Below, in pieces: positions 1,550-1,841 of a stretch of 47,202 bases of DNA. The stretch is from assembly GCA_049599895.1 (NCBI GenBank), contig JBMYPC010000004.1, positions 1 through 47,202 on the forward strand, in the 5' to 3' direction. The DNA comes from Bacteriovoracaceae bacterium (GTDB lineage Bacteria; Bdellovibrionota; Bacteriovoracia; Bacteriovoracales; Bacteriovoracaceae). The notes under the pieces are model-generated. The model was not told where the DNA came from. It ran no database searches and saw only the letters and a list, made by a program, of their open reading frames with translations. A program made the translations under genes and the position numbers. Each line of letters begins with the position of its first letter. The first letter of the stretch is position 1.

Positions 1550-1660
1550 TAATTCAATCAACAAAAAATATGGTGGAGATGACAAGGATCGAACTTGCGA
1601 CCTCTTGCATGCCATGCAAGCGCTCTCCCAACTGAGCTACACCCCCAGTTGATTGAATTA
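1550..1660. repeat. Perfect 13-bp inverted repeat flanking the tRNA
   Basis: taattcaatcaac at 1550-1562 and gttgattgaatta at 1648-1660. Confidence 0.9.
1571..1646 (-). tRNA. tRNA-Ala(GGC), complete, encoded CCA
   Basis: GGGGGTG-TA-GCTC AGTTGGGA GAGC-G-CTTGC ATGGCAT GCAAG-AGGTC-GCAAG TTCGATC CTTGT-CATCTCC-ACCA. 76 nt, G3.U70 alanine identity pair, anticodon GGC, A32-U38. Confidence 0.97.
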
Positions 1661-1685
1661 TCCCAAGCAGTTGTAAATTTTCCGT

Positions 1686-1739
1686 TCAGTAGTTTGAGAG
1701 AAAGTACGTCAAAGTCAAACTACTGATAGGGCTTTTTTT
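1686..1739. other. 12-bp inverted repeat/hairpin in the inter-tRNA spacer (possible + strand terminator or protein-binding site)
   Basis: tcagtagtttga (1686-1697) and tcaaactactga (1715-1726) with a 17-nt loop; a T7 run follows on the + strand after 6 nt. Confidence 0.6.
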
Positions 1740-1782
1740 CTCAGTCTTTTTAAGCGTTTAGCAATAAAAACCTGCTTGTTCG

Positions 1783-1826
1783 TCTTCACTGCCAGCGAAG
1801 CGCTCTCCCAACTGAGCTATACCCCC
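1783..1826 (-). pseudogene. Truncated tRNA-Ala(GGC): positions 1-44 only (no canonical T arm, 3' acceptor strand or CCA)
   Basis: GGGGGTA-TA-GCTCAGTTGGGAGAGC-G-CTTCG CTGGCAG TGAAG-A has an intact D arm and anticodon arm (GGC, C32-G38). 1798-1827 matches 1618-1647 at 29/30 nt. Confidence 0.88.
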
Positions 1827-1841
1827 ATCGATTGAAGGAAT

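Follow-up and report, generated by a model that had tools for sequence, protein, structure and literature searches.

Islands that target tRNA genes are said to include an anticodon-loop class, reportedly delineated by Williams in 2002. The closest described counterparts of the locus analyzed here come from mycobacteriophages, in which tRNA-dependent lysogeny with cores of ~10 bp has been shown experimentally (PMC10865867). The accessible text of this study leaves open how tRNA-dependent lysogeny is linked to classical integration, and it contains no mention of tRNA-Ala or Proteobacteria. Two further reports, both from outside the Actinobacteria, are, in their accessible parts, also pertinent. 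The Pasteurellaceae ICEs at tRNA-Leu (PMC6028734) are like the element described below in being non-phage, in having a core in the anticodon loop (10-13 nt there) and in replacing the broken gene with an intact copy near the element end. A further likeness exists with phage-related sequences of Sinorhizobium meliloti (PMC11476347), whose integration inactivates a host tRNA for which a foreign-looking isoacceptor then substitutes.

Here we describe a tRNA-Ala(GGC) locus in a 47,202-nucleotide stretch of DNA (the window) from contig JBMYPC010000004.1 (C4) of a Bacteriovoracaceae assembly (GCA_049599895.1, designated G000). We consider it very probable that the split host gene and the divergent spare gene found there represent an integrative island that recombined into the anticodon loop without rebuilding the gene, and that the island copy is likely the one that now decodes.

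Structure of the tRNA-Ala(GGC) locus

On the minus strand the locus consists of a tRNA fragment, a spacer, a full tRNA gene, a small ORF and a converging integrase, which is the order given in an earlier note on this DNA. The fragment is a 44-nt 5' piece of the host tRNA-Ala(GGC) gene (1826-1783, minus strand) that would constitute attL. It matches the Rfam tRNA model with 23.5 bits, under the gathering score of 29. The sequence past its tRNA position 44 is not tRNA-like, and the element supplies no 3' half there. Between the core and the spare lies a spacer, or element-side arm, of 136 nt (1647-1782, minus strand), and behind it stands the complete element-borne tRNA-Ala(GGC) (1571-1646, minus strand), which is called by ARAGORN, scores 61.5 bits with Rfam and carries G3-U70, G7-C66 and an encoded CCA. 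The anticodon arms are as the note had described them, with C32-G38 in the fragment and A32-U38 in the full copy. Directly behind this tRNA slot is a 69-aa ORF (1319-1528, minus strand) that converges on the integrase. The attachment core is a 15-nt block (1783-1797, minus strand) that comprises tRNA positions 30-44, with the anticodon loop at 1795-1789.

The likeness between the two tRNA copies is more than chance (BLAST E 1.7e-7 within the genome). Of the first 29 tRNA bases 28 are identical, at a distance of 180 bp; the 29/30 identity reported earlier holds only if base -1 is counted. The copies differ at tRNA positions 7, 30, 31, 32, 38, 39 and 40, and within positions 27-44 the spare has six mismatches to the host allele, two of which (32 and 38) fall in the 7-nt loop. 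A 7-nt leader motif that the note listed as common to both copies is indeed present, but it is offset by one base (-10 to -4 in one copy versus -11 to -5 in the other) and on the element side is part of a 13-nt repeat, and we treat it as a chance likeness.

This 13-nt perfect inverted repeat brackets the spare (5' arm 1648-1660, 3' arm 1550-1562) and may represent either an RNA stem or DNA-binding sites. It surpasses in length every other such repeat at the 28 tRNA genes of the genome, of which the next has 8 nt, and in 59 fetched tRNA loci, of which the next has 12 nt. No comparable bracketing repeat was seen around the spares of two relatives, G228 and G030. Folding with the 3' arm gave an acceptor-stem probability of 0.31-0.92 versus 0.01 without it, and when the fragment was left out the arm helped equally (0.92 versus 0.03-0.05). 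As the gain is the same without the fragment, the effect is not specific, and a role of the repeat in shielding the spare from mispairing with the upstream fragment was rejected. The 136-nt arm itself contains a 12-nt inverted repeat (1686-1697 and 1715-1726); its repeats are candidate protein-binding sites, and BLAST gave no other match of the arm beyond chance elsewhere in the genome.

Signals for transcription are less distinct. A -35/-10 pair with 9/12 consensus matches lies upstream of the host fragment (1842-1871, minus strand), but it is one of two found versus 1.4 +/- 1.3 in shuffles, which taken alone is not above chance. A hairpin with a T-run (1429-1449, plus strand) may terminate the integrase transcript; here too one site was found versus 0.9 expected in shuffles, not above chance.

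A genome-wide tRNA check, which the note had advised, was done with ARAGORN on the 97%-complete assembly. It returned 28 tRNA genes, of which one is Ala(TGC) and a single one Ala(GGC), and a tmRNA. The spare is this only intact Ala(GGC) gene, and the fragment at 1826-1783 is not called.

Two further features of the tRNA genes of G000 were observed. A hairpin-forming repeat of ~45 nt or more directly follows the CCA of at least nine tRNA genes (C1:54995, C57:18900, C88:5700, C118:1870, C119:7370, C193:3262, C200:58, C222:249 and C242:2392) and also occurs away from ARAGORN-called tRNAs (C105, C155). Additionally, a T-arm scan located tRNA 3' parts uncalled by ARAGORN at C65:1844, C74:37, C57:18925, C193:3232 and C257:37. 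The C65 find is a repeated 3' part that resembles Arg(TCG) and lies 2.8 kb behind the gene, and the others are genes cut by contig ends or duplicated.

Identity of the host allele

The 44-nt fragment has a perfect counterpart (44/44) in the intact Ala(GGC) gene of both G009 and G011, and the G020 gene matches it at 43/44 positions. The spare agrees with these family alleles at 60/76 positions and is closest in sequence to the gene of G017. Genes upstream of the tRNA locus (5'-nucleotidase, deacetylase, glycosyltransferase and neighbours) are syntenic in 10/17 relatives' loci examined. The G009 locus shows no upstream synteny with the window despite its identical fragment sequence, and the G011 locus shows little, involving only genes 23-26 kb into the window; downstream of the tRNA, gene content is not conserved between relatives, and none of the 17 loci has downstream genes with their best match on C76, a second contig of G000 that is treated below. 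Judged from these identities and from synteny, the fragment is the host's allele, at the family's usual locus.

A 5'-half pattern of Ala(GGC) matched in 188 of the 237 family genomes searched and gave no match in the other 49. The half is single in 180 of the 188 matching genomes and double in 8, and among these 8 a close tandem of two 5' halves occurs only in G000 and G228, both of which carry the integrase. The two 5' halves of G030, G201, G235, G467, G473 and G530 represent separate full genes, near-identical contig-end copies or longer duplicates and were set aside as not having this layout. In G030, two different complete tRNA-Ala(GGC) genes lie on separate contigs (L114, C1:278.3 kb; L104, C11:64.5 kb). 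In G530 (L118/L122, C64:13338 and 16859), a genome without a relative of this integrase, a full tRNA-Ala(GGC) shares its 23-nt leader with a 52-nt copy of the 5' part that lies 3.5 kb downstream.

Counting by eye in the 150 listed matches gave at least 31 with A32 and at least 119 with C32. Comparison of 20 distinct full GGC genes revealed A32-U38 in 5, C32-G38 in 15 and no other pairing, which fits the earlier claim that these are the two pairings of tRNA-Ala(GGC). The C32-G38 pair is tolerated in tRNA-Ala(GGC). The A32-U38 pair is described as the exception of this tRNA in the accessible text of PMC5041475. The G017 allele (L034:6041-6116) is of the A32-U38 type, is 71/76 identical to the spare and resides at the ancestral locus, where no fragment, small ORF or integrase was detected; it is a possible donor lineage or a possible finished replacement.

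The missing 3' half and links between contigs

A search for the missing 3' half, also advised in the note, located it at 4771-4817 of C76 (G000:C76:4771-4817) by fuzzy matching with the 3' halves of relatives. Because it is decayed, this piece escaped strict searches that looked for an orphan T-arm or the 3' end of the spare, and ARAGORN does not call it as a tRNA gene. The 15-nt core at 1783-1797 recurs once, at C76:4771-4785, and there runs on into the host 3' half; these two occurrences in the genome compare with 0.002 expected by chance. The piece is identical to G009 positions 30-62 at 31/33 nt, its acceptor strand suits A7 of the fragment and not G7 of the spare, and a hairpin follows it. 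Its decay consists of one missing base where relatives have U70 and one T-stem mismatch. When the fragment and the C76 piece were rejoined in a script, the resulting 74-nt gene passed ARAGORN at a relaxed threshold only, with the T-stem mismatch, the first base pair unpaired and no G3-U70. The latter is the main determinant for alanyl-tRNA synthetase, according to the accessible text of PMC6451123.

The element side of the C76 piece resembles tRNA positions 14-29 (11/16), and that of the far piece of the G228 island resembles positions 8-29 (12/22), with both intervals chosen after looking. This hints that attP may have descended from a longer tRNA copy; alternatively, the C76 piece may be what decay has left of a larger copy, and so no clean attR. 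The C76 junction is known from assembly alone, and we infer the link of C4 to C76, as the pieces are on separate contigs.

The contig of the window begins with the end of a multicopy insertion sequence (1-30), ~30 bp before the integrase reading frame, followed by its likely 3-bp target duplication (31-33), which pairs this contig end with C136. The same insertion sequence end is present at 7 contig termini, 3 of one type and 4 of the other, and its 3-nt flanks pair C4-C136, C246-C220 and C157-C94 and leave C112 unpaired. Thus, 3-nt target duplications of an unassembled multicopy insertion sequence likely scaffold the assembly, in this case as C4-IS-C136. No contig-end overlap from C136 to C76 was found. 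On C136 (L063), positions 377-2587 contain IS66 genes and an inverted HTH gene, and positions 2671-8107 contain low-GC (32%) genes for a dehydrogenase, a glycosyltransferase, a phosphotransferase and a nucleotidyltransferase; these sugar-modifying and related genes are likely island cargo. On C76, beyond the 3' half (L064:5327-14745), are an HTH protein, a YafQ/RelE-like toxin-antitoxin pair and a type I secretion system, island-like genes that possibly belong to a further island at the same hot spot.

The integrase and its partner ORF

The integrase is present and converges on the tRNA locus as stated in the note, but it is in two frames with an insertion sequence end in front. Its N-terminal part (63-695, plus strand, frame 3) is 32% identical to residues 2-225 of the intact homolog P0001 and has a weak SAM-like Pfam match (E 0.08). 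Its catalytic part (682-1347, plus strand, frame 1) is 40% identical to P0001 residues 232-448, has the conserved R, YxxRH, GH and Y motifs of a tyrosine integrase and matches PF00589 with E 0.01. The homology is split between 63-662 in frame 3 and 682-1284 in frame 1, with a frameshift near an A-run at 673-679 and then a stop. Of 13 close family members scanned, 2 exceed the Pfam cut-off for PF00589 and another 5 match below it at E<=0.0022. The family of tyrosine recombinases to which the integrase belongs is small and divergent, with 26 clusters at E<=1e-10, and a search of solved structures with the integrase profile gave 0 matches.

Relatives of the 69-aa ORF could be aligned in 5 elements, and the small-ORF profile matches 5/401 genomes of the phylum, the same 5 that hold the integrase. 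Similar small ORFs were seen by eye in G036 and L098, and no match was obtained in Pfam, phage records or the ESM Atlas. The small ORF likely encodes a partner protein of the integrase, such as a directionality factor or a regulator. In a tree of 14 proteins, the integrases of the window and G228 form a clade (100/100, on long branches), and G030, represented by a short fragment, falls among Gly-targeting members (83/87). This suggests, with modest support, that replacement arose twice or was lost repeatedly.

Related islands in the family

The DNA context was analyzed for 7 integrase loci, those of the window, G228, G030, G036, G254, G305 and L098. The G228 locus starts with a host piece of 38 nt, which a 28-nt spacer separates from the island's own tRNA-Ala(GGC); the small ORF and an intact integrase follow, the latter 41% identical to that of the window. 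Its host 3' half is 10,593 bp away on the same contig, the two ends having in common a 10-nt core at positions 29-38, and neither end is called as a tRNA gene by ARAGORN. A congener, G314, has an intact gene that is identical to both G228 pieces (38/38 and 47/47) and matches the G228 spare at 52/76 positions only; with flanks syntenic on both sides, this is the empty site. Comparison with relatives lacking the element, as the note had recommended, thus reveals an intact gene opposite the island. The G228 spare has the same 7-nt loop as the host gene and 8 mismatches, all in stems. The 10.6-kb intact island of G228 together with the empty site of G314 constitutes a ready test system.

Proteins of the G228 island include weak Rep_trans and HerA-like matches and a DUF4917 protein. 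No phage structural Pfam family was found in 12 G228 island proteins or 9 C136 proteins, and among viral contigs 0/148 candidate stretches were confirmed; the islands do not qualify as prophages on these data, that of the window being only partly assembled.

The G030 locus has a Gly(GCC) 5' piece, a 126-nt spacer, a foreign Gly(GCC), the small ORF and a 120-aa integrase remnant. Its spare has 6/15 mismatches to the host gene around the core, and its host 3' half was not found with the one pattern tried. In G305, the small ORF is preceded by an element-variant 3' half only, while the host-type 3' half lies at a distance of 10.4 kb and the full gene on another contig; from this layout it is clearly a case of classical restoring integration, in tandem. 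G254, G036 and L098 each have one whole Gly(GCC) between the host-side genes and the small ORF; by this arrangement they look classical, and a search of the fetched DNA located none of their far ends. Thus, tRNA replacement is seen at 3/7 loci and restoration at 1/7, and 3/7 only look classical.

The G305 island (L060:4608-5360) encodes a second, Xer-like recombinase and an AAA/RepA-like protein, names that come from reading the sequences. This cargo is unlike that of G228, so the integration module appears to move between backbones. Short direct and inverted repeats whose own cores resemble one another recur in element arms (window 1686-1726; L056:3160-3260 and 13600-13636; L062:7760-7820; L058:11760-11850; L060:707-730 and 10970-11025), and G254 has three 13-nt direct repeats; these arm repeats are candidate arm-type sites. 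Words common to both element arms were also considered as proof of arm-type sites but were not counted, as an 11-nt match is too frequent, occurring in 103/2,000 random and 87/1,500 AT-matched windows (~5%).

A model for tRNA replacement and its alternatives

The cores comprise positions 30-44 in the window and 29-38 in G228. They overlap at 30-38, the anticodon loop, so the cut is likely located there and not after the anticodon arm, where the note had placed it; the integrase would exchange strands within these positions. Integration would break the host gene, since the element side offers no 3' half to restore it. The spare, in the same orientation 28-136 nt downstream, may be transcribed either by read-through that starts at the host promoter or from a weak spacer promoter. 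No terminator-like site was found on the minus strand, and read-through from the host promoter is plausible. In 3/3 replacing islands, the spare and the host allele are not the same around the core (6 positions in the window, 8 in G228, 6/15 in G030), and such differences would keep it from being an integrase target. In the window, the swap of the 32-38 pair would keep decoding intact and spoil the spare as a target for its own integrase; the loop of G228 is unchanged, and therefore shielding by a 32-38 swap is not general. Finally, the frameshift in the integrase and decay of the host 3' half would have grounded the island and rendered the replacement permanent, and from the sequence the swap is likely fixed in G000. 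The window would thus have caught the end state, in which the integrase is broken, the host half is decayed and the only Ala(GGC) gene is now foreign.

A more far-reaching proposal, to which we give only limited credence, is a ratchet. One small integrase family would have one tRNA slot before the partner ORF that is filled either by a 3' half (restoring) or by a whole foreign gene (replacing, at least twice); recoding of 32-38 would hide the spare, and subsequent grounding and loss of the 180-bp remnant would leave a foreign allele at the ancestral locus without a trace. If true, this would account for alleles of the A32-U38 type, that of G017 among them, in a family where C32-G38 predominates.

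Three other readings were weighed. The smallest weight, which is negligible, goes to an assembly artefact in which tRNA k-mers from different metagenome organisms were joined into a chimera. Conserved tRNA stretches do attract contigs of other organisms, and X1 contigs break at 1606 and 1791; against this, a run of another study (X2) yielded a 151-nt contig that spans 1693-1843, including the junction at 1783, with 0 differences, and the same anatomy exists in G228 and G030. Almost nothing of the stretch is present in runs X3 and X4. The note itself had offered an old tandem duplication of the host gene, with the upstream copy decaying and the integrase a bystander. The 5' halves, 28/29 identical and 180 bp apart, would suit such an event, as would the broken integrase and the unassembled far end of the island. 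However, the fragment has a sharp end and shows no decay (44/44 to relatives), the spare has paired changes in its acceptor and anticodon stems (60/76 to host-type alleles), and the missing half exists elsewhere with a common core. Moreover, tandems occur only with the integrase, and the comparison of G228 with the G314 empty site displays insertion directly, which refutes duplication for G228 and leaves it highly improbable for the window. No tandem free of the integrase was found and a half matching the fragment exists, the two points on which the earlier note had let its reading depend. The third reading invokes two events, a classical island that restored or replaced the tRNA and an unrelated C76 piece, either a decayed tRNA-Ala copy or a scar left by some other element. 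C76 is unlinked and lies among island-like genes (toxin-antitoxin pair, type I secretion), its tRNA likeness extends to position 14 (11/16), and classical members exist in the same integrase family (G305). Yet the spare is no hybrid of host 5' and element 3' sequence, as it differs from the fragment at both anticodon-stem strands and base 7; the overlap of C76 with the fragment is exactly the block that contains the G228 core; and the far piece of G228, a proven island end, also has a faint 5'-side likeness (12/22). We regard two events as quite improbable.

Replacement of the host tRNA by an island that brings its own whole tRNA of the same anticodon, as the note had proposed, is thus favored by the fragment being the host allele and by the existence of its 3' half. 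The note had coupled this to addiction-like retention, in which the spare would chiefly be a device that kills or cripples cells that lose the island. Apart from the spare, no intact Ala(GGC) gene was found, and the 3' half of the host gene is decayed; of the 34,629 Ala codons counted across 1,191 long ORFs, 21,062 are GCT or GCC; and loss of alaWX impairs growth of E. coli according to the accessible text of PMC11480407. Conversely, clean excision of an intact island rebuilds the host gene, since the G228 pieces equal the G314 gene, and loss is therefore not punished there. The same source reports that E. coli is viable without Ala(GGC), its alaWX (GGC) genes being non-essential as Ala(UGC) reads all four codons, and the host studied here has Ala(TGC). 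Addiction as the chief role is thus weakly supported and, in our estimation, unlikely. Retention is better seen as a late effect of decay; by analogy, dependence on the spare is probably a matter of fitness and not of life or death, and a need for the element tRNA for survival after integration is doubtful in the case of Ala(GGC).

Comparison with known systems

The island is like the actinobacteriophages Fionnbharth, Cluster L and Gaia (Guerrero-Bustamante and Hatfull 2024, PMC10865867; accessible text here and below) in having a tyrosine integrase and an attB in a tRNA gene. As in these phages, neither junction rebuilds the gene, and the element tRNA has the same anticodon as that of the host and is divergent from it. 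Cores are of similar size, 10-15 nt in the Bacteriovoracaceae islands versus 8-17 bp in the actinobacteriophages. The disrupted Ala(GGC) is single-copy, with one intact gene in the assembly, in line with the definition used for the phages. Restoring close relatives also exist in both groups, namely Boilgate, Ximenita and Omega among the phages and G305 here. In contrast to the phages, the host belongs to the Bdellovibrionota, no phage genes were seen in the G228 island (10.6 kb, the one whole island), and the target Ala(GGC) is probably not essential. The position of the spare differs as well, as it lies 28-136 nt behind the core, in the slot that the 3' half occupies in classical members, while the phages have it elsewhere in the element. 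Unlike the phages, the copy of the window is grounded and the host half decayed.

The Pasteurellaceae ICEs are large and conjugative, have XerD-like integrases and have their copy following parA (PMC6028734, accessible text); the islands described here differ from them in that their integrases form a small divergent family and are accompanied by a dedicated partner ORF of 70-85 aa. The Sinorhizobium meliloti elements belong to another phylum, involve other tRNAs and are prophage-type (PMC11476347, accessible text). Classical restoring islands have the same target position and an integrase that adjoins the junction, and G305 works in this manner; the replacing islands differ from them by an element side of the junction without a 3' half. 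Island finders that seek a 3' duplicate of an intact tRNA would consequently miss or misplace such elements. In the open-access literature covered, which includes the accessible part of PMC5760749, no element combining an island, a tRNA and an integrase was found for Bdellovibrionota or Bacteriovoracaceae.

The arrangement is not new in kind, being preceded by those in PMC10865867, PMC6028734 and PMC11476347, each taken at its accessible text. What the present locus would contribute is an extension of tRNA-dependent integration to Bdellovibrionota and to a tRNA that is probably non-essential. Additionally, one small integrase family has both restoring and replacing forms in a single gene slot, which bears on the question of how the two modes are connected that the accessible text of PMC10865867 left open.
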